In this document: piece after piece, positions 1,610 through 23,518 of the stretch | Position numbering within the stretch: position 1 is the stretch's first letter | Layout of the letters: each line of letters begins with the position of its first letter | Sequence record: MZ311863.1 | DNA: 64,000 nt | Origin: Escherichia phage vB_EcoM_LNA1 | Direction: 5' to 3' (one strand) | Notes under the pieces: model-generated | What the model saw: the letters and a program-made list of their open reading frames with translations, nothing else | Databases searched by the model: none | What the model was told of the DNA's origin: nothing | Made by a program: the position numbers and the translations under genes

Positions 1610-3085
1610 GTGAGAAGAATGGCAGATATTACAGAAACACAAGAAAGCTTACCACCATTTAGAATGGGTGAAGTAGGTTCTTTGGGTCTGAAGGTTAAGA
1701 ATGGAAGAATCTATGAAGAACCTCGTCAGGCACTAAGGTTCCCCGAAAGTATTAAAACTTTCCAATTAATGATGCGTGACCCTGCTGTAGCAGCATCTGT
1801 AAATATTATTAAGATGTTTGTCAGAAAAGTCAACTGGAGATTCGTACCTCCAAAGGGAAAAGAGCAAGACCCTAAAATGCTTGAAAGAGCAGACTTCTTT
1901 AATTCTTTAATGGATGACATGGAGCATGATTGGGCAGATTTTATTAACTCTGTAATGTCATTCTGCACTTATGGGTTCTGTGTTAATGAAAAGGTTTATA
2001 AGAAACGTCAGGGTAAGAAAGGAAAGTACCAGTCAAAATTTGATGATGGTCTGATTGGATGGGCTAAGTTACCAATCAGAAACCAATCAACGCTTGATAA
2101 GTGGTATTTTGACGAAGACTTTAGAAAAGTTACAGGTGTTAGGCAGAATCTGAGAAATGTTTCACATATTGCTGGAGCAATTAATCTTGGAGAAAGACCG
2201 CTAACAAGAAAACTGCCACGAGCTAAATTCATGCTGTTTAAGTATGATGATGAATATGGAAACCCAGAAGGTCGTTCACCATTACTTAATGCCTATGTAC
2301 CGTGGAAGTATAAAGTCCAGATTGAAGAGTACGAAGCTGTTGGTGTTTCAAGAGACTTGGTAGGTATGCCAAAGATTGGTTTACCACCAGATTATCTGGA
2401 TGAAAATGCAGAACCTGAAAAGAAAGCTTTCGTACAATACTGCAAAACTGTTGTTAATGATATGATTGCTAATGACAGAGCAGGTTTAATCTGGCCTAGA
2501 TATATCGACCCAGATACTAAAGAGGATATTTTTGAGTTCTCATTAGTTTCTAGACAGGGTGCTAAAGCATACGATACAGGTTCTATTATTGACAGATATT
2601 CCAAGCAGATTATGATGGCATTTATGTCAGATGTTCTTGCTATGGGTCAGTCAAAATATGGTTCATTCTCTCTTGCAGATTCTAAGACAAGCTTACTAGC
2701 AATGTCAGTAGATATTCTGCTGAAGCAAATTAAGAACGTAATTAACCGTGATTTAGTTGCACAGACTTATGCTCTTAATATGTGGGATGATGAAGAACAT
2801 GTACAAATCACATATGATGATATCGAAACCCCAGACCTTGAAGTAATTGGTTCTTATATTCAGAAGACTGTTGCAGTAGGTGCTTTGGAAGTTGACAAAG
2901 AGCTATCTAACAAGCTTAGAGAGCATATTGGTCTTCCTCCTGCTAATGAGTCTCAGCCAGTATCTGAAAAGCTTTCTCCAAATAGCCAAAGCCGTTCAGG
3001 AGATGGTTATAAGACCGCTGGAGAAGGTACTGCAAAGACACCTTCAGCGAAAGACCCAAGCACAGCAAATAAGGCAAATAAATAA
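1610..3085 (+). CDS. portal protein (putative)
   Basis: 491-aa ORF directly after TerL, before protease/capsid genes; call by size and synteny only. Confidence 0.6.
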   Translation: MRRMADITETQESLPPFRMGEVGSLGLKVKNGRIYEEPRQALRFPESIKTFQLMMRDPAVAASVNIIKMFVRKVNWRFVPPKGKEQDPKMLERADFFNSLMDDMEHDWADFINSVMSFCTYGFCVNEKVYKKRQGKKGKYQSKFDDGLIGWAKLPIRNQSTLDKWYFDEDFRKVTGVRQNLRNVSHIAGAINLGERPLTRKLPRAKFMLFKYDDEYGNPEGRSPLLNAYVPWKYKVQIEEYEAVGVSRDLVGMPKIGLPPDYLDENAEPEKKAFVQYCKTVVNDMIANDRAGLIWPRYIDPDTKEDIFEFSLVSRQGAKAYDTGSIIDRYSKQIMMAFMSDVLAMGQSKYGSFSLADSKTSLLAMSVDILLKQIKNVINRDLVAQTYALNMWDDEEHVQITYDDIETPDLEVIGSYIQKTVAVGALEVDKELSNKLREHIGLPPANESQPVSEKLSPNSQSRSGDGYKTAGEGTAKTPSAKDPSTANKANK

Positions 3086-3585
3086 TGGCTGAAGTTATCT
3101 CTATTTCAAATGCTACACGAGTGCATTCGTATAGAGGTGTTCTTATTATCACTGACAAATTATCTGTAGAGGCTGGCTCAAGGGTTAGCCTTTCAGGTTA
3201 TGTAAGTGATGGTGGAGCCTCTGACGTTTTCACTATTTGCAGGTTACTTGATGCTCCAATGAGTGGAAAACCGTTTATTTCAGGAAATTGTAGTGAAATT
3301 GTTAAAATTCCATTTGACAGTTCATGCCTTTTGGGTGTAAAGTTATATAACTGCGAGAATAAACGTATCAATGTTAATAGCATTGAAGCCGCTTTCATTA
3401 CCCTCGACACTGCATTTCAATCTCCAATGACAGTTAATAAAGAAACAAACAGACTTGAATACATTTTTTCACAAAATGATTACAAAGTACTTGTCAAAGG
3501 CAAAGTTTATGATATGATTGTAAATGTGGTAGATGAATCTGGTAACCATTCAACAGTCCTTAAACAAAAAGTAAGGTTTAATTAA
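3085..3585 (+). CDS. hypothetical head-module protein
   Basis: 166-aa ORF, start overlaps portal stop (ATGA coupling). Confidence 0.3.
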   Translation: MAEVISISNATRVHSYRGVLIITDKLSVEAGSRVSLSGYVSDGGASDVFTICRLLDAPMSGKPFISGNCSEIVKIPFDSSCLLGVKLYNCENKRINVNSIEAAFITLDTAFQSPMTVNKETNRLEYIFSQNDYKVLVKGKVYDMIVNVVDESGNHSTVLKQKVRFN

Positions 3586-3917
3586 TGGGAACATTAACTA
3601 TTGATGGTAAGAATAAAATCCTCGCCACGCTAACCCCAACGACTATTATTTTACACAATGTAGACCCAACGGCAGACCCTACAGCAAATAAGGTTACTCA
3701 GCCAGTGGCTATTTATTTTTCTGAACCGGATAATGGCTTAATTGCCTCAGAAGACACAGTTAATATTACTGTCCCAGCTTCTGCAACGGTCTCACACTAT
3801 AGCTTGTGGGATGCTAACGATAAATGCGTGGCAACTGGTGCTCTTAGCAAACCTCAATTCTTTGCTGAAGAAGGTATCTATGTTATCTCTTCAGTCTCTG
3901 TAGATTTAAACAAATAG
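3585..3917 (+). CDS. hypothetical head-module protein
   Basis: 110-aa ORF translationally coupled to upstream gene. Confidence 0.3.
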   Translation: MGTLTIDGKNKILATLTPTTIILHNVDPTADPTANKVTQPVAIYFSEPDNGLIASEDTVNITVPASATVSHYSLWDANDKCVATGALSKPQFFAEEGIYVISSVSVDLNK

Positions 3918-3928
3918 GGTGAGTAAAA

Positions 3929-5275
3929 ATGAGTTCGAATATCTTCAGACTTGCTGATAGATTATTCAACCAACCTTTGCTAGCCACTGAATCATTAGCT
4001 CACTCAGCAGCAACTTATGTGAATAACAGATTGCTGGGTGATGTCCAAGCAGCAGTAAACTTTGATAAACCCAAAGGTGAAGCAAGAAGTCTTTTAAAAG
4101 TGAAAGATGACATTGCTATTATCCCTATTATGGGTGGTTTAACCCATCGCATGACATTCATTGATGCCATGTGTACAGGTGGATTAAGCTCTTATGAAGG
4201 TTTGCGTAGAGGCTTTGACGAAGCTTTAGCAGATGAGTCAATCAAGACTATTGTTCTGCACATCGATTCTGGTGGTGGTGAAGCTTCAGGTTGCTTTGAA
4301 TTAGCACGTCACATTATGGCTTCAAGAGGCCAAAAGAAAATTATTGCTTATGTAGATGAGTTCGCTTGTTCCGCTGCATACGCTCTTGCATCTTCTGCTG
4401 AAGAAATTATTGCATCACCAGATGCAGATGTTGGTTCTATTGGTGTAATTATGGTTCATCAGGAATTAACTAAAGCATTTGAAAAGAATGGCGTGACAAT
4501 TAACGTCATCAAAGCTGGTGAGTTTAAAGGTATGGGTTCACCATTCCAAGCACTCTCAGAAGAAAGCAAAGAAAGACTTCAAAAGAGAATTAATGATACC
4601 TACGCAACCTTTACAGGTTTTGTAGCCGAATCTCGTAATCTCTCTGAAGAAGCTGTAAAGAATACTGAGGCGAATGTTTATTCTGCTCAGGAAGCTCTTG
4701 AACTTGGTTTAATTAACTCAATCATGTCTCAAGATGATTTCTTAAATTACTTACAAGGTTCTGAAGAGGCTCCTGTAAGTTTAAACGTTAACAATTCAGG
4801 TGAAGAAATGACTGAACAAGAAAAGCAAGAACTAGAAGCTTTGCGTCTTCAGGTTGCTCAAATGAAAGCTAAAGAACAGGAAGCTGCTTTGTCAGATTTG
4901 ACTAATAAGATTTCTGCTTCTGCTGAAGCTTTTGGATTTGATGCAAAAGAAGCTGCAACGACTATTTTAGGTGCTGGTCTTGATAACCCTCTGAGTGTTC
5001 TGTTTATGAATGCTCTGGAAGGTGCTAACCAGAAACTTAATGAAACTATCGCGTCCCATGCTTCTGCAATGGAAGAAAAAGAATCAGAAATTACCAAGCT
5101 GAAAGAAACTGCTGGTGCTGTTCTTGAACATTCCAACGCTATGGAAGAAATGGGTAATGACGGCGAAGCTGATTTGGTTGAAGAAGAAAAAGAACCAGCT
5201 AAGAATGCTTCCGAAGACACCGCTGAACAACGCAAACTGGCTCTCCAGAATGCTCTAAAATCTCTTATCAAATAA
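3929..5275 (+). CDS. prohead protease (S49/ClpP-like) with C-terminal scaffold-like coiled-coil domain
   Basis: N-terminal two thirds resemble S49/SppA-ClpP fold proteases (IDSGGGE, GSIGVIMVHQ); C-terminal third is Ala/Glu/Lys-rich coiled coil; lambda C/Nu3-like position. Confidence 0.65.
   Translation: MSSNIFRLADRLFNQPLLATESLAHSAATYVNNRLLGDVQAAVNFDKPKGEARSLLKVKDDIAIIPIMGGLTHRMTFIDAMCTGGLSSYEGLRRGFDEALADESIKTIVLHIDSGGGEASGCFELARHIMASRGQKKIIAYVDEFACSAAYALASSAEEIIASPDADVGSIGVIMVHQELTKAFEKNGVTINVIKAGEFKGMGSPFQALSEESKERLQKRINDTYATFTGFVAESRNLSEEAVKNTEANVYSAQEALELGLINSIMSQDDFLNYLQGSEEAPVSLNVNNSGEEMTEQEKQELEALRLQVAQMKAKEQEAALSDLTNKISASAEAFGFDAKEAATTILGAGLDNPLSVLFMNALEGANQKLNETIASHASAMEEKESEITKLKETAGAVLEHSNAMEEMGNDGEADLVEEEKEPAKNASEDTAEQRKLALQNALKSLIK
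4808..5275 (+). CDS. possible nested in-frame scaffold protein (Nu3-like internal start)
   Basis: In-frame ATG at 4808 preceded by AGGTGA Shine-Dalgarno 5 nt upstream; downstream region is coiled-coil scaffold-like. Confidence 0.3.
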   Translation: MTEQEKQELEALRLQVAQMKAKEQEAALSDLTNKISASAEAFGFDAKEAATTILGAGLDNPLSVLFMNALEGANQKLNETIASHASAMEEKESEITKLKETAGAVLEHSNAMEEMGNDGEADLVEEEKEPAKNASEDTAEQRKLALQNALKSLIK

Positions 5276-5286
5276 GGAACACAATA

Positions 5287-5664
5287 ATGGCATATCAAGG
5301 TTTTACTAAGTTAGGTAAAAGAGAACCTCTGAATGATATCATTCTTTGGGAACAGGTTACCCCAACAGGCCACTCTCGTAAAGAGTACACTCCGGTTGCT
5401 TCAACAGAATACCGTGTAGGTGAAGTTCTGAAAGCAGACGGTACTAAAGTTACAGCAGGACAAGAAGCTCAGGCTGATTCTGTATGTATCGTTAACTTTT
5501 ATGCAGACTCACAACTGTCTTATCACGGTCAGTTGAAAGTGGTAGGTATTTACCGCGACGCAGAACTGAAAGACATGCTTACTCTTGAGTCTGGTGTTAA
5601 TGCCGAGAACGTCAAGAAAGCTCTGGCTGCTAAAGGTATTGATTTCGTACCAACTGGCCTGTAA
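5287..5664 (+). CDS. head decoration-like protein (putative)
   Basis: 125-aa ORF between protease/scaffold and major capsid gene, as lambda gpD. Confidence 0.4.
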   Translation: MAYQGFTKLGKREPLNDIILWEQVTPTGHSRKEYTPVASTEYRVGEVLKADGTKVTAGQEAQADSVCIVNFYADSQLSYHGQLKVVGIYRDAELKDMLTLESGVNAENVKKALAAKGIDFVPTGL

Positions 5665-5697
5665 TAACAATAATAAGACATTCTGGAGAATTTTACA

Positions 5698-6804
5698 ATG
5701 TTGACTAATTCTGAAAAAAGCAGATTTTTCCTTGCTGACCTGACTGGTGAAGTCCAGTCTATCCCAAATACTTATGGGTATATTTCCAACTTAGGTCTGT
5801 TCCGTTCAGCACCAATCACCCAAACTACTTTCCTGATGGACTTGACTGATTGGGATGTTAGCTTGCTTGATGCGGTAGACCGTGATAGCCGTAAAGCAGA
5901 GACTAGCGCACCTGAGCGTGTTCGTCAAATCAGCTTCCCAATGATGTACTTCAAAGAAGTTGAAAGCATTACTCCTGATGAGATTCAGGGTGTACGTCAG
6001 CCAGGAACTGCAAACGAACTGACTACTGAAGCTGTAGTACGTGCTAAGAAGCTGATGAAGATTCGTACCAAGTTCGATATTACTCGTGAGTTCCTGTTTA
6101 TGCAAGCTCTGAAGGGTAAAGTTGTTGATGCTCGCGGTACTCTGTACGCTGACCTGTACAAGCAGTTCGACGTTGAGAAGAAGACTATTTACTTCGACCT
6201 TGACAACCCTAATGCTGACATCGACGCTTCTATCGAAGAACTGCGTATGCACATGGAAGACGAAGCTAAGACTGGCACTGTAATCAACGGTGAAGAAATT
6301 CACGTAGTTGTTGACCGTGTATTCTTCAGCAAACTGACCAAGCATCCTAAGATTCGTGACGCTTATCTTGCACAGCAGACTCCACTGGCTTGGCAACAGA
6401 TTACTGGTTCTCTGAGAACTGGTGGTACTGACGGCGTTCAGGCTCACATGAACACTTTCTACTACGGTGGTGTTAAGTTTGTCCAGTACAACGGTAAGTT
6501 CAAAGACAAGCGTGGTAAGGTTCATACTCTGGTGAGTATTGATAGTGTAGCAGCAACTGTTGGTGTAGGACATGCTTTCCCTAACGTTTCTATGCTGGGT
6601 GAAGCAAACAACATCTTCGAAGTGGCATATGGCCCATGTCCTAAGATGGGTTATGCGAATACACTTGGTCAGGAACTATACGTATTCGAATACGAAAAAG
6701 ACCGTGACGAAGGTATCGACTTTGAAGCTCACTCTTACATGCTGCCATACTGTACTCGTCCTCAGTTGCTGGTAGATGTTCGTTCTGACGCTAAACCAAA
6801 CTAA
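5698..6804 (+). CDS. major capsid protein (putative)
   Basis: 368-aa ORF after protease and decoration genes; codon usage typical of highly expressed genes (ctg, cgt, gct, aaa rich); strong SD. Confidence 0.65.
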   Translation: MLTNSEKSRFFLADLTGEVQSIPNTYGYISNLGLFRSAPITQTTFLMDLTDWDVSLLDAVDRDSRKAETSAPERVRQISFPMMYFKEVESITPDEIQGVRQPGTANELTTEAVVRAKKLMKIRTKFDITREFLFMQALKGKVVDARGTLYADLYKQFDVEKKTIYFDLDNPNADIDASIEELRMHMEDEAKTGTVINGEEIHVVVDRVFFSKLTKHPKIRDAYLAQQTPLAWQQITGSLRTGGTDGVQAHMNTFYYGGVKFVQYNGKFKDKRGKVHTLVSIDSVAATVGVGHAFPNVSMLGEANNIFEVAYGPCPKMGYANTLGQELYVFEYEKDRDEGIDFEAHSYMLPYCTRPQLLVDVRSDAKPN

Positions 6805-11258: not shown

Positions 11259-19289
<8,031 letters not shown>

Positions 19290-19291
19290 TA

Positions 19292-20440
19292 ATGGCAGTA
19301 GGTGAAATTCAAATTAGTGCCTTGCCTCAAGCAGCCTTACCAATTGACCTTAGTGATATCTTCCATCTTAAACAGGGTATCGAGGATAAGAGATGCACTC
19401 TTGAGCAATTACTTGCTCCACACTCAAGCCTAAGAAATAACCCTCATGGTGTTACTAAGACACAAATTGGTTTAGATAACGTTATTAATGCTCTCCAGTT
19501 AGTTGCTGAAAATAACTTATCAGACATTGTTAATGTAGCTGAGGCAAGAGCAAATCTACAGATTATGTCTTCAGAAGAGGTTAATAATCTTATTCAACAA
19601 CATATTGATGATAAGAGCAACCCACACAATACCACTAAGGCACAGGTTGGGTTAAGTAATGTTCAGAACTGGGTGACATCTAACCTTTATAACGAGGATG
19701 CAGATAAGTATGCTACAGCAAGAGCAGTAAATAACTTGTACAAGGCTGTTCAGGCTTCTTATCCAGTAGGTACTATCCATCTCTCTATGAATCCTGCAAA
19801 CCCTTCTACATATTTAATTTGTGGAGGTACTTGGGAGTTAGTTTCAAAAGGAAGAGCACTTGTAGGTTATGATAGTGCTTCTAGGCCAGTTGGCTCAACG
19901 TTTGGTTCGCAGACTACTGCACTGACAGTTAACAACATTCCTGCACATACTCACTCAGTATACGTCACTGGTGGTGGTCACACACACGGTGCAACGGCCT
20001 CTATCAGTGCTTTTGACTACGGTACTAAAGGGACTACAACGTTTGACTATGGAACAAAGACTGTATCTACTTATGACTATGGTAACAGAACAACCAGTGC
20101 TGCTGGTTTAACACAAACAACATTCATTAATCGTGGTTATGCTGATGGTGGTTGGAGAGGTTTATCAGTTGAGGGGGCAAGCTATGACCCAAGAGCTACG
20201 CTGACAACAGCTAACAACCACACTCACTCTGTAGCAATTGGTGCGCATAATCACACAGTTGGTATTGGTGCTCACAGTCATTCTGTTGCAATTGGCTCCC
20301 ACAACCACTCAGCAACAGTAACAGTAACCGGAGCAGGTGAGCATTCGCACTCTGGCACAACTGGCACAACTGGTTCTGGTCAAGCATTTAGCGTTGAACA
20401 GCCATCCTTCGTATTGTATGTATGGCAGAGAACAGCTTAA
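19292..20440 (+). CDS. tail fibre protein with His-rich (HxH) C-terminal tip
   Basis: N-terminal repeated NPH..TK.Q.GL.NV motifs; FDYGTK triplet repeat; C-terminal HTHSV/AHNHTV/AHSHSV/SHNHS boxes and ...GSGQAFSV...W.RTA end shared with next gene. Confidence 0.6.
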   Translation: MAVGEIQISALPQAALPIDLSDIFHLKQGIEDKRCTLEQLLAPHSSLRNNPHGVTKTQIGLDNVINALQLVAENNLSDIVNVAEARANLQIMSSEEVNNLIQQHIDDKSNPHNTTKAQVGLSNVQNWVTSNLYNEDADKYATARAVNNLYKAVQASYPVGTIHLSMNPANPSTYLICGGTWELVSKGRALVGYDSASRPVGSTFGSQTTALTVNNIPAHTHSVYVTGGGHTHGATASISAFDYGTKGTTTFDYGTKTVSTYDYGNRTTSAAGLTQTTFINRGYADGGWRGLSVEGASYDPRATLTTANNHTHSVAIGAHNHTVGIGAHSHSVAIGSHNHSATVTVTGAGEHSHSGTTGTTGSGQAFSVEQPSFVLYVWQRTA

Positions 20441-20450
20441 TTTCTTTACA

Positions 20451-20470
20451 GGGGCTATACAGCCCCTTTT
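20451..20470 (+). terminator. rho-independent terminator
   Basis: GGGGCT-ATAC-AGCCCC hairpin followed by TTTT, 10 nt after fibre gene stop. Confidence 0.6.
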
Positions 20471-20486
20471 AAGAGGAAAATTTATA

Positions 20487-22838
20487 ATGGCAGATTACAA
20501 GTTGAGTGAATTAAACTCAATTGATACAATTCGTTCAGACGACCTCCTTCATGTCAGGGTTAAAAAGAGACCTGAAATGCTGGGCGATGAAGACCGTCGA
20601 ATGACCTATCAAGACTTCTTAGCATCTTTTAAACTAGAAAGATTTGTCCAGATTGCTGGTAGCACTATGACGGGTGACTTAGGAATTGTCAAGTTACTTT
20701 ATGGTGGTAAGGCAGTATTTGACCCTACAGGTGCTTCTGAGATTGCTGTTGGGGATGTTTTAAAGACTTTTAAAATCAACGCAAACGGCCTTAGACTAAC
20801 TATTGCAGATGCTTCAAGGTCAGCAACTGTTTATCATACTCTGAATAAGCCAAGTCCTAATGAACTTGGGATGAGAACTAATGAAGAGAATGACGCAAGA
20901 TACTCAAGATTAGCTGTAAATAACACATTTAGAGGTACTCAAGCTATTCTCTCTGACAATGAAGCTCTTATTGTTAAGAATATTACACAAGGAATGCCGC
21001 TGTATATTCGTGGTCAAGATGCAGATGGTACTAATAGGTGGTATCTAGGCAATGATAATAGGGGTACAGATAATCTGGTTATCAAAAATGTCAAATCCGG
21101 TGCGTATTTAGCTATTTTGGATAACCTAATCTCTGTGAACAAATCAATCCAAATCACTGGTCAAGTTCAACCTTCTAACTTCTCTAACTTAGATGCTAGA
21201 TACTTTACTCAGACAGCAGCTAATCAGAGATTTGCGCAGCTAGTTGGTAATAACACATTCAGTGGTTTAAACACATTCAACCAACTAAGTGTTTTCAAAA
21301 AAGATGGTGAAGCAATTAGGCTACAGAATGCCAATGCTGCACAACCATTGTACATTAAGGCGATTGATAGCACAGGTGTCAACAGATGGTACATTGGTAA
21401 TAGTAACGAAGGTGATAACGTAGCTCTAGAAAACTACAAAACTAGTGGCAAGATTACTGTAGGGACAAGTGTTAATATCAATAAAACACTAACTGTAACT
21501 GGTCAAGTTCAACCTTCTGACTGGACTAACATTGACTCTCGTTATGTTCTTATCGGTTCATACGCAAATCTTGCTAAGAAGAATGAAGCTAACACATTCA
21601 CTTTACAGCAGAATATTCAATCTGATGGTGAAGCATTAAGAATCTACAGCAAGGCTCAGAATAATTCTTCTTACATTGTTGGTAAGAATACTGATAACAC
21701 AAATAAGTGGTTTATCGGTTGTGGTACTAATGGTTCTGGTACGGCATCATTCCATAACTACTTGACTGGTGCAAGACTCGATTTAGCTGACGAAGTTCTT
21801 CTGTCTAAATCTCTACAGATTACTGGACAGGTAAAACCTTCTGATTGGTCTAACTTAGATGCTAGATACTTCACTCAGTCAGCAGCTAATCAGAGATTCA
21901 TGGTTGCAGGTTCTACAGGAGAAGCTACAGAGCAGAATGCAGATGGTGTGGCATGGAACGCTAAAACAGGCTTATATAATGTAACCTCAACAAATGCTGA
22001 TTACACAGCACTTGTGTTTCAAATGTATCAGGCGGTGCCATCTTCTACTGCCTGTGCGCAACTAAAGTTCCAGTATAAAAATGGTGGGATGTGGTACAGA
22101 ACATCTGTAGACAGTAAAGGTTTTGAGGCTAAGTGGTCTAAGGTTTACACAGAGGCTCAGAAGCCAACCCCTTCAGAGCTTGGTGCATACACTAAAACTG
22201 AAACTGACCAGAAGATTGCACAGGCAGTAAGTGACTCTACAGACCTTAACAAAATCTATCCAGTAGGTATTGTAACGTGGTTTAACAGTAATGTTGACCC
22301 TAATACAGCACTTCCTGGTCTAACTTGGACGTACCTCAACAATGGTGTTGGTAGAACTATCAGAATTGCAGCAGCAAACGGTTCAGATGTTGCTACAACT
22401 GGTGGTTCAGACTCTGTGACGTTAGCTGTTGGGAACTTGCCTTCACACACTCACAGTTTTTCTGCTACCACTTCATCTTTTAACTACGGTACAAAATACA
22501 CTAACACAACTGGTGCTCACGCTCACTCTGTAAGTGGCTATACTTCATCTGCTGGTCACCACAACCACGCTATCTCGTGGATTGGTCAGAACTCTACACA
22601 CTATTCTGGTGGTGGTGGTGGTAGAATCGGTACAGGTCCGGGTTACACTGATGGGGGTGGTGACCACGCGCATTCAATTAGTGGTACTGCCGCCTATGCT
22701 GGTGACCATGCTCACAGTGTTGGTATTGGTGCTCACAGCCACACAGTTAGTGGTAACACTGGTGGTACAGGTTCTGGTTCAGCATTTAGTGTTACTAACC
22801 AGTTCTACAAGTTAATGGCTTGGGTAAGAACTGCTTAA
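20487..22838 (+). CDS. long tail fibre protein with three ~110-aa tandem repeats and His-rich (HxH) tip
   Basis: Start moved to ATG at 20487 (AAGAGG SD); the track's upstream extension overlaps the previous gene and the terminator. Repeats at about 21153, 21495, 21819; C-terminal HxH boxes. Confidence 0.65.
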   Translation: MADYKLSELNSIDTIRSDDLLHVRVKKRPEMLGDEDRRMTYQDFLASFKLERFVQIAGSTMTGDLGIVKLLYGGKAVFDPTGASEIAVGDVLKTFKINANGLRLTIADASRSATVYHTLNKPSPNELGMRTNEENDARYSRLAVNNTFRGTQAILSDNEALIVKNITQGMPLYIRGQDADGTNRWYLGNDNRGTDNLVIKNVKSGAYLAILDNLISVNKSIQITGQVQPSNFSNLDARYFTQTAANQRFAQLVGNNTFSGLNTFNQLSVFKKDGEAIRLQNANAAQPLYIKAIDSTGVNRWYIGNSNEGDNVALENYKTSGKITVGTSVNINKTLTVTGQVQPSDWTNIDSRYVLIGSYANLAKKNEANTFTLQQNIQSDGEALRIYSKAQNNSSYIVGKNTDNTNKWFIGCGTNGSGTASFHNYLTGARLDLADEVLLSKSLQITGQVKPSDWSNLDARYFTQSAANQRFMVAGSTGEATEQNADGVAWNAKTGLYNVTSTNADYTALVFQMYQAVPSSTACAQLKFQYKNGGMWYRTSVDSKGFEAKWSKVYTEAQKPTPSELGAYTKTETDQKIAQAVSDSTDLNKIYPVGIVTWFNSNVDPNTALPGLTWTYLNNGVGRTIRIAAANGSDVATTGGSDSVTLAVGNLPSHTHSFSATTSSFNYGTKYTNTTGAHAHSVSGYTSSAGHHNHAISWIGQNSTHYSGGGGGRIGTGPGYTDGGGDHAHSISGTAAYAGDHAHSVGIGAHSHTVSGNTGGTGSGSAFSVTNQFYKLMAWVRTA

Positions 22839-22917: not shown

Positions 22918-23112
22918 ATGCCTACAATCCTAGCAATTCTTCTAAAAAATCTAGGTAGCTTCTTCTGGAAACTCATTTTATCCCTTCTGAGTGAATACAT
23001 GATTGAGAAAGTGTTCTTTAGGCTTGCAAGATATCTTGCGAGTAAAACAGACACACCTATTGATGATGAGTTCGTAGATAACTTAGAAAAAGCTTTTAAG
23101 GGGGAGAAATAA
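22918..23112 (+). CDS. small membrane protein (holin-like candidate)
   Basis: 64-aa ORF with hydrophobic N-terminal segment; downstream of tail fibres, own promoter. Confidence 0.3.
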   Translation: MPTILAILLKNLGSFFWKLILSLLSEYMIEKVFFRLARYLASKTDTPIDDEFVDNLEKAFKGEK

Positions 23113-23484
23113 ATGAAGTGGCTAGAGGAAGCTTTTAAAAATAATATTGGTGCAATTGTAGTTGGTATTTTTAGTGTTATTGGAATGTATACCACCATGC
23201 AAGTTTCGGAAGGTAAACAAGAAGTGTCTATCACAACAAAGTTACAGCAGTTAGATAATTATTCCAAAAGTAATTATTCAGCTATTCGTGATTTACAGTC
23301 TGATATGAGGCTGCTTCAGCTAGGGATGGAGAACCAGAAAGTCCAGTTAGAGAATGTTAAGGGTGAGAACGCAAAACTTACCAAAACCCTTGATAAATTC
23401 TCTGATAGCGTGAACAATCTGGCTCAATCAGTATCAGCCCTCCAAGCTATTACTGAAAAGAACACAAAGAATACTGAAAAGTAA
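23113..23484 (+). CDS. membrane-anchored coiled-coil protein (holin/spanin-like candidate)
   Basis: 123 aa; one N-terminal TM segment (IGAIVVGIFSVIGMY) then coiled coil. Confidence 0.3.
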   Translation: MKWLEEAFKNNIGAIVVGIFSVIGMYTTMQVSEGKQEVSITTKLQQLDNYSKSNYSAIRDLQSDMRLLQLGMENQKVQLENVKGENAKLTKTLDKFSDSVNNLAQSVSALQAITEKNTKNTEK

Positions 23485-23489
23485 AGTTT

Positions 23490-23518
23490 AAGGCTCCTTT
23501 TTACGGGAGCCTTTTTTG
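23490..23518. terminator. rho-independent terminator between convergent gene blocks
   Basis: GGCTCC / GGAGCC stem, loop TTTTTACG, then TTTTTT; sits between plus-strand structural block and minus-strand thyA. Confidence 0.65.

Follow-up and report, generated by a model that had tools for sequence, protein, structure and literature searches.

The closest described system to the fibres discussed here is that of phage Bas63 (JohannRWettstein), for which a cryo-electron microscopy (cryo-EM) study (Sci Adv 2025) described a 430-Å short fibre, gp26, and a 630-Å long fibre, gp27 (PMC12609058). Cryo-EM and AlphaFold together gave both Bas63 fibres a T4 gp37-like tip consisting of a collar, a needle with di-histidine (HxH) motifs, and a head; seven such motifs were counted in the short fibre and six in the long fibre, one of the latter in the form HHxH (PMC12609058). 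The long fibre also comprises five beta-helix repeat domains with helical linkers between them, and the authors liken the repeat fold to the T4 gp34 rod; across the genus high variability was seen in the tips and, against expectation, in the repeat domains too, and the repeat number was invariant (PMC12609058). In T4 gp37, each motif together with its counterparts in the other two chains holds a single iron ion on the axis of the fibre, and the histidines are essential (PMC6957217). Here we analyze the corresponding pair of genes, encoding a short tail fibre (STF) and a long tail fibre (LTF), in Escherichia phage vB_EcoM_LNA1 (sequence record MZ311863.1). The window, i.e. the whole stretch of DNA that was analyzed, is 64,000 nucleotides (nt) long, and the two genes, with all their parts given below, are located on its plus strand between positions 19292 and 22838.

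DNA comparison of the 4-kb fibre region and of the first 25 kb identified the window as belonging to an E. coli Felixounavirus (subfamily Ounavirinae, Felix O1-like myovirus), with phages dune, ekra, radambza and JK55 exhibiting approximately 96-97% DNA identity over 98-100% of the query. The fibre architecture is the one already published for Bas63, and the window represents a correct rediscovery of it, since the Bas63 study describes the same architecture in near-identical proteins. The two phages agree in genus, gene order, protein lengths (382 residues for both short fibres, 784 in Bas63 versus 783 in the window for the long fibres), HxH counts and overall architecture, and the LTF tip is 92-100% identical to that of Bas63 per 40-residue bin. 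On the other hand, the three shaft repeats of the window reach only 27-67% identity with their Bas63 counterparts, i.e. the LTF carries another set of cassettes. In the GenBank record of Bas63 (MZ501086; locus L001 of our comparison set), the 382-residue fibre (3291-4439) is named 'long tail fiber protein' and the 784-residue fibre 'tail fiber protein', the reverse of the naming in the cryo-EM paper.

Tips of the short and long tail fibres

The STF gene (19292..20440, 382 residues) is the ortholog of Bas63 gp26 and Felix O1 ORF76, as judged from synteny and from its match to PHROG 2097, tail fiber (E = 1e-127). Its product is identical (100%) to the STF of dune and 92-100% identical, per 40-residue bin, to Bas63 gp26. 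The LTF gene (20487..22838, 783 residues) is the ortholog of Bas63 gp27 and Felix O1 ORF77; it matches PHROG 4277 over its full length (1317 bits), and its product is 94% identical to that of dune and 70% identical to that of Bas63. Translation of LTF starts at the ATG at 20487 (MADYKLS), which is preceded by AAGAGGAA and is the start annotated in Bas63, dune and heid. A GTG at 20337 was rejected as the start codon: it is a mechanical open reading frame (ORF) start, and the extension that it implies (20337-20486) overlaps the STF gene.

A first-pass annotation of the window had proposed two tail-fibre genes with a common His-rich tip, the longer of them with internal repeats, and this observation is confirmed overall: both fibre ORFs are present, and the tips and the repeats are real. 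The boxes that it had quoted (AHNHTV, AHSHSV, SHNHS, AHAHSV, HHNHAI, DHAHSI and AHSHTV) were all recovered, and both proteins end in the near-identical terminus GSG.AFSV...W.RTA. The common part is considerably longer than the last approximately 120 residues to which the first-pass annotation had confined it, however, since it extends over some 195-230 residues and includes collar, needle, head and the C-terminal return.

In STF, the collar domain occupies residues 157-218 (19760..19945) and begins with YPVG. The segment 154-260 matches Pfam Gp10_C (PF21939) with E = 1.6e-17 (65 bits, above the cutoff of 27), and the collar is also matched by the PDB structures of T4 gp10 (2FKK, 5HX2) and by the T4 gp37 tip structure 2XGF from its residue 18 on. 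The collars of T4 gp10, gp12 and gp37 have the same fold as that of STF, but in gp10 no HxH needle follows the collar. The collar of STF is followed by the outgoing needle strand, with HxH motifs at residues 219 and 230 and three F/YDYG repeats, and by a variable head (approximately residues 255-309), together at 19946..20218 as placed by the motif positions and the T4 gp37 alignment; the head block coincides with the segment that varies among relatives. The returning needle strand (20219..20350) carries HxH motifs at residues 310, 319, 328, 337 and 351, and its motifs align to T4 H966, H980, H989 and H998. In a Tandem Repeats Finder search of 18-24 kb, 3.4 copies of a 27-nt (9-residue) periodic array were found at 20219-20310. 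The last part, at 20351..20440, holds the C-terminal strand (GTTGTTGSGQAFSVEQPSFVLYVWQRTA) and the stop codon; it is strongly conserved in all STFs, and we infer from the T4 structure that the strand returns into the collar in the manner of T4 gp37 residues 1010-1026 (T4 gp37 domain limits from PMC6957217).

The LTF tip has the same layout. Its collar domain (residues 591-653, 22257..22445) aligns with the STF collar, is nearly invariant among LTFs, and belongs to the part of LTF matched by PHROG 2097 (E = 4e-48). The outgoing needle strand (22446..22568) has HxH motifs at residues 654 and 678 and the motif HHNH at residues 691-694, with the HxH pair starting at residue 692, and these align to T4 H883, H915 and H929. 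The head domain, the variable distal tip (residues 695-726, ISWIGQNSTHYSGGGGGRIGTGPGYTDGGGD; 22569..22664), is a hypervariable cassette among relatives and the counterpart of the T4 gp37 tip subdomain at residues 932-965. Three further HxH motifs, at residues 727, 741 and 750, align to T4 H966, H980 and H989 in the returning needle strand, which together with the C-terminal strand (GSGSAFSVTNQFYKLMAWVRTA) and the stop codon takes up 22665..22838. In total, there are seven HxH motifs in STF and six in LTF.

The likeness to T4-type tips noted in the first pass holds as homology. In phmmer searches, STF matched 2XGF with E = 3.2e-14 (residues 146-352 versus chain 18-229) and LTF with E = 3.4e-15, and blastp against full-length T4 gp37 gave E = 1e-15 and 6e-20, respectively. 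A joint alignment placed the LTF motifs in register with six of the seven T4 gp37 sites (H883, H915, H929, H966, H980 and H989), and the STF motifs in register with five of the seven (H883, H966, H980, H989 and H998), STF having two extra motifs in addition. In both fibres the HxH motifs flank a hypervariable central segment, and the terminus is conserved, which is consistent with a chain reversal at the distal head, a six-stranded trimeric needle and a C-terminus placed in the collar, an arrangement reported for the near-identical Bas63 proteins (PMC12609058). The features in common with the T4 gp37 tip are the collar, the needle, probably six-stranded, and the head, the FDYGTK motif, the GIGAHxHTV returning strand and a probable return of the C-terminus to the collar. 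The differences are that the head sequences are unlike that of T4, that LTF has six motifs, and that STF lacks the two head-proximal outgoing motifs. Furthermore, T4 has a jointed fibre made of four proteins, while the fibres of the window are single short proteins of 382 and 783 residues.

Upstream of its collar, STF contains the motif NPHxxTKxQxGLxNV twice, at residue 50 (19439-19483) and at residue 110 (19619-19663). The two copies probably correspond to the elements described as 'triple alpha-helix and turn' in Bas63.

Shaft of the long tail fibre and competing explanations

The LTF N-terminus (residues 1-144, 20487..20918) would comprise the baseplate-binding region and a first beta domain. 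It is nearly invariant among relatives, had no Pfam match, and closes with a linker-like motif, PSPNELGMRTNEENDARY, at residue 122. It is followed by three tandem units, namely unit 1 (residues 145-254, 20919..21248), unit 2 (residues 255-367, 21249..21587) and unit 3 (residues 368-477, 21588..21917), which were delimited by Pfam gp37_trimer matches and pairwise comparison. LTF matches gp37_trimer (PF20744) in three stretches (E = 4e-63, 209.8 bits versus a cutoff of 21.7), the best of them at residues 381-471 in unit 3, which also matches the T7 gp17 fibre structure 4A0T. Since self-comparison of LTF by blastp gave the identity match only, the units were compared pairwise, with E values of 1e-21 to 1e-32. 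The shaft ends with a fifth beta domain of Pfam gp37_C type (residues 483-585, 21933..22241; E = 2.9e-17), and in the PDB residues 469-577 match residues 322-426 of phage Mu fibre protein S (8JU3, Mu S/S') with E = 1.9e-16. Linker-like motifs are found at residue 560 as well as at residue 122, which suggests that LTF has five domain-plus-linker units overall, in agreement with the five beta-helix repeat domains of Bas63.

A profile of the repeat units matched the T7 fibre gp17 at residues ~369-437 (4A0T, 7BOZ; E = 7e-8) and did not match rod repeats of the T4 gp34 type, so the likeness to gp34 proposed for Bas63 is one of structure only. The arrangement in LTF differs from those of other known fibres: beside its tip domain T7 gp17 has one gp37_trimer-type copy, compared with three in tandem in the shaft of LTF, and in Mu protein S the gp37_C-type region is near the receptor-binding end, whereas in LTF it is an internal shaft domain placed before a T4-type tip.

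The reading that we prefer for the locus as a whole, two Felixounavirus fibre genes with T4 gp37-type tips and an evolution by cassettes, has in our estimation a probability of about 90%. The alternatives concern its separate parts. The tips could resemble each other in composition only, as Gly/Ser/Thr/His-rich low-complexity tails of independent origin and without a common fold. T, G, S, A and H are indeed abundant in both tips, with His making up 8% of the STF tip and 7% of the LTF tip, and the repetitiveness of the DNA is apparent from an out-of-frame ORF of 93 residues at 22534-22815. Nevertheless, STF residues 157-382 and LTF residues 591-783 align with E = 7e-12 in composition-adjusted blastp, with the His-poor collar included in the alignment, and in Smith-Waterman comparison with shuffled sequences collar plus needle scored z = 14.3, the needle by itself 12.1 and the final 32 residues 14.6. 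Within the last 180 residues of STF, each of the 14 His belongs to an HxH pair, and when the STF tip (residues 205-382) was shuffled a mean of 1.0 HxH was obtained and none of 20,000 shuffles reached seven; for the LTF tip the average was again about one, and 11 of 20,000 shuffles reached six. In addition, 2XGF is matched by each protein independently, and the register of the motifs is kept in 41 distinct tips and in T4. We give a purely compositional origin next to no chance, and the possibility that the first-pass annotation itself had raised against its reading of the tips, that their similarity is one of composition, fails on the same evidence. For the repeats, the corresponding alternative is that the three ~330-bp units are recent tandem DNA repeats, the copy number of which sets the host range through slippage or unequal crossing-over. 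In support of it, unit 1 closes with a conserved linker (KSIQITGQVQPSNFSNLDARYFTQTAANQRF, 21141..21232) that has a 92-nt partner at the end of unit 3 (21807-21898), the two being 84% identical, and we regard this stretch as showing a mild sign of homogenisation, because 18 of 26 identical residues share the same codon versus 11.6 expected. However, identity between the units is just 51-58% at the DNA level and 35-48% at the protein level, and Tandem Repeats Finder detected no 330-bp array between 18 and 24 kb. Moreover, all 26 relatives scored have long fibres with exactly three units, in line with the Bas63 paper, which likewise found no variation in number across the genus, and the length differences among relatives (777-849 residues) fall outside the units. 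A recent origin of the repeats is thus highly improbable; judged by their divergence, the LTF units are ancient domain duplications. The three tandem repeats of ~110 residues proposed in the first pass consequently stand as diverged domain repeats (three gp37_trimer matches) and not as recent ~330-bp DNA repeats. Its positions for the units (21153, 21495 and 21819) do not mark their starts but the conserved ITGQV linker that closes each unit on its 3' side, and the near-identical stretches that it had quoted are found in units 1 and 3 but not in unit 2.

A third alternative accepts a T4 gp37-like needle and holds that it binds another metal, e.g. zinc, or is only partly occupied, so that there is no ladder of iron ions in these fibres. 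The identity of a metal cannot be read from sequence, the distribution of motifs in STF (two outgoing and five returning) is unlike that of T4, and T4 gp12 coordinates zinc through histidines. Against this, both the context of the motifs (G-x-H-x-H-[ST]-[VF]) and their 9-residue spacing equal those of the T4 gp37 iron sites, and the authors of the Bas63 study also assume iron by analogy (PMC12609058). We consider another metal, or partial occupancy, unlikely. Our preferred reading, T4 gp37-type tips and cassette evolution, also has to accommodate several observations that weigh against it. STF has no equivalents of T4 H915 and H929, with motifs at residues 230 and 351 instead, and its needle geometry may therefore differ from that of T4 near the head. 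The match of the LTF collar to Pfam Gp10_C (21.5 bits) is below the cutoff of 27. A tblastn search of the window found no homolog of the T4 chaperone gp38 (best match only with E above 0.6), so folding must differ from T4 in this respect; a gp38-type gene is, however, an accessory feature of the T-even phages and not of the tip fold. The two fibres of the window have unrelated heads, and the longest stretch common to the two genes is 42 nt at 83% identity. Finally, it is by analogy that we infer trimerisation, the identity and occupancy of the metals, the receptor and any host-range effect.

Exchange of heads and repeat units among relatives, and a working model

The window was compared with 22 IMG/VR loci, four annotated phages and Felix O1. 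DNA identity profiles across this set distinguish conserved blocks, i.e. the N-terminus, collar and C-terminus of each fibre and the GIGAHSHTV returning strands, from variable blocks, i.e. both heads and the LTF repeats. The STF type with seven HxH motifs occurs in the window, Bas63, dune, heid and two others, a type with nine being commoner, and the long fibres of relatives have six or four motifs. Since the three units are found at constant residues (~145-477) in all relatives, the extra length of the longer LTFs lies downstream of the units, and in the longer relatives the motifs after the units are shifted by approximately 60 residues.

Unit 1 of the window is unlike those of heid and dune, with the remainder of the gene being 95-100% identical. 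In heid, the long fibre departs from that of the window in hardly more than unit 1, apart from slight differences in the head. The differences of the dune long fibre are located around units 1 and 2, and in locus L006 units 1 and 3 differ while unit 2 is the same. Units were also recognized at changed positions, as unit 1 of L006 is 86% identical in amino acid sequence to unit 3 of L019, unit 1 of L014 is 79% identical to unit 3 of L018, and unit 1 of Bas63 is 76% identical to unit 3 of L014. These alignments show that repeat units have been exchanged singly between close relatives and have moved between positions 1 and 3. In two IMG/VR Felixounavirus contigs, L018 (~5355-5371) and L021 (~5048-5086), the long-fibre gene is split by frameshifts, which may be sequencing errors or real truncations.

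Heads have changed places as well. In Felix O1 (L028, NC_005282; genes 934-2100 and 2151-4499) both fibres carry the same head, with 81% identity over 270 nt, and the same is true of UAB_Phi87 (L022), with 91% over 200 nt; the head type common to both fibres of each of these phages is GGRYGGDSIGGK...VSSVAGDHSHT. In the long fibre of AYO145A (L011, KR014248.1, locus 5672-6032), needle and head are 86% identical in amino acids and 88% in nucleotides to T4 gp37 896-994, which points to exchange of a head cassette between an Ounavirinae phage and the Tequatrovirus T4. An exchange of cassettes, of heads and of repeat units alike, is accordingly a pattern supported by the relatives and not by the window. 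This bears on the first-pass suggestion that the paralogous tips and internal repeats are substrates for recombination. The suggestion applies among relatives, where heads and units have been exchanged; it is not supported within the window, where a common stretch of only ~42 nt offers little substrate for recombination between the two fibre genes of this phage. As for the two kinds of change that it had proposed looking for in related phages, tip swaps were seen (Felix O1, UAB_Phi87 and AYO145A/T4), and variation in repeat copy number was not, all 26 having three. The shuffling of shaft cassettes between positions and the exchange of heads, both between paralogous fibres and with T4, are modestly new points, and they come from the relatives only.

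Based on these results we suggest the following model. Both fibres would be homotrimers held to the baseplate by their N-termini, the long fibre attaching via a 100-residue platform protein and the short fibre to the wedge. From the collar each chain would run outward along a thin needle, form a small variable head that touches the host, and run back along the needle, so that the conserved C-terminus (...W.RTA) would be tucked into the collar. Every HxH motif, contributed by three chains, would place six histidines around the fibre axis, and by analogy with T4 this would give seven metal sites in STF and six in LTF, probably occupied by iron and acting as internal rivets that stabilise the needle. 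The LTF shaft would consist of three beta domains recognisable in sequence within five structural domains, with conserved linkers (ITGQVQPSxxSNLDARYFTQ) between them. The fibres would have evolved by the swapping of heads and of single shaft domains between conserved scaffolds, namely the collar, the linkers, the GIGAHSHTV strands and the C-terminus.

An intact lipopolysaccharide (LPS) core is strictly required by Bas63 (PMC8594841). Because of this dependence, the LPS core is the most likely receptor also for the phage of the window, in contrast to T4, the receptor of which is OmpC/LPS. The presence of two different heads in one phage suggests that two different surface epitopes may be recognised. 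The shaft repeats vary as much as the heads, are replaced singly and can move between positions 1 and 3 by way of the conserved linkers; if selection by the host surface lies behind this, they might in addition form a second, lateral surface for host recognition, e.g. in side-on contacts with O-antigen or LPS. The functional part of this idea is speculation, and we hold it to be rather doubtful; if true, recognition by shaft domains would be a determinant that has not been recognised for T4-type fibres.

For the window itself, the main result is a correct annotation, i.e. the assignment of STF and LTF, the true start codon, the domain limits, and a map of scaffold versus variable cassettes. 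The fibres are an ordinary and known feature and raise no new biological question. The annotation is useful for host-range engineering of phages of the Felix O1 type, which are used in biocontrol of Salmonella and E. coli, and the conserved collar, the GIGAHSHTV strands, the linkers and the C-terminus are natural splice points for swaps of head or shaft. Such junctions have been used in nature: heads moved from one fibre to the other in Felix O1, and a head was also exchanged between T4 and a Felixounavirus.

Gene neighbourhood

The gene order in the window is that of Bas63, dune, heid, VpaE1 and Felix O1, i.e. wedge proteins, platform, short fibre, long fibre, two small ORFs, and convergent thymidylate synthase and dihydrofolate reductase (DHFR) genes. 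The baseplate wedge proteins are encoded at 16658-18127 and 18130-18987, as assigned from the gene order in relatives. Directly upstream of the fibres, a 100-residue protein (18987..19289, plus strand) is the ortholog of Bas63 gp25, with a match to PHROG 4141 (E = 4e-62) and with a size and position equal to those of bas63_0025. In Bas63, gp25 is the platform on which the long fibre attaches (PMC12609058).

A tRNA scan of the window found none, and a scan for promoters and terminators gave counts no higher than those in shuffled sequences. The out-of-frame ORF at 22534-22815 lies within repetitive HxH-coding DNA and is unlikely to be a gene. Downstream of the long fibre there are two small ORFs, the first (22918-23112) encoding 64 residues with a hydrophobic N-terminus and the second (23113-23484) encoding 123 residues and annotated as 'holin' in dune; both matched only PHROGs of unknown function (402 and 4038). 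Past the operon, at 23490-23513, a strong terminator-like hairpin faces the convergent thymidylate synthase/DHFR genes and is the sole convincing hairpin.

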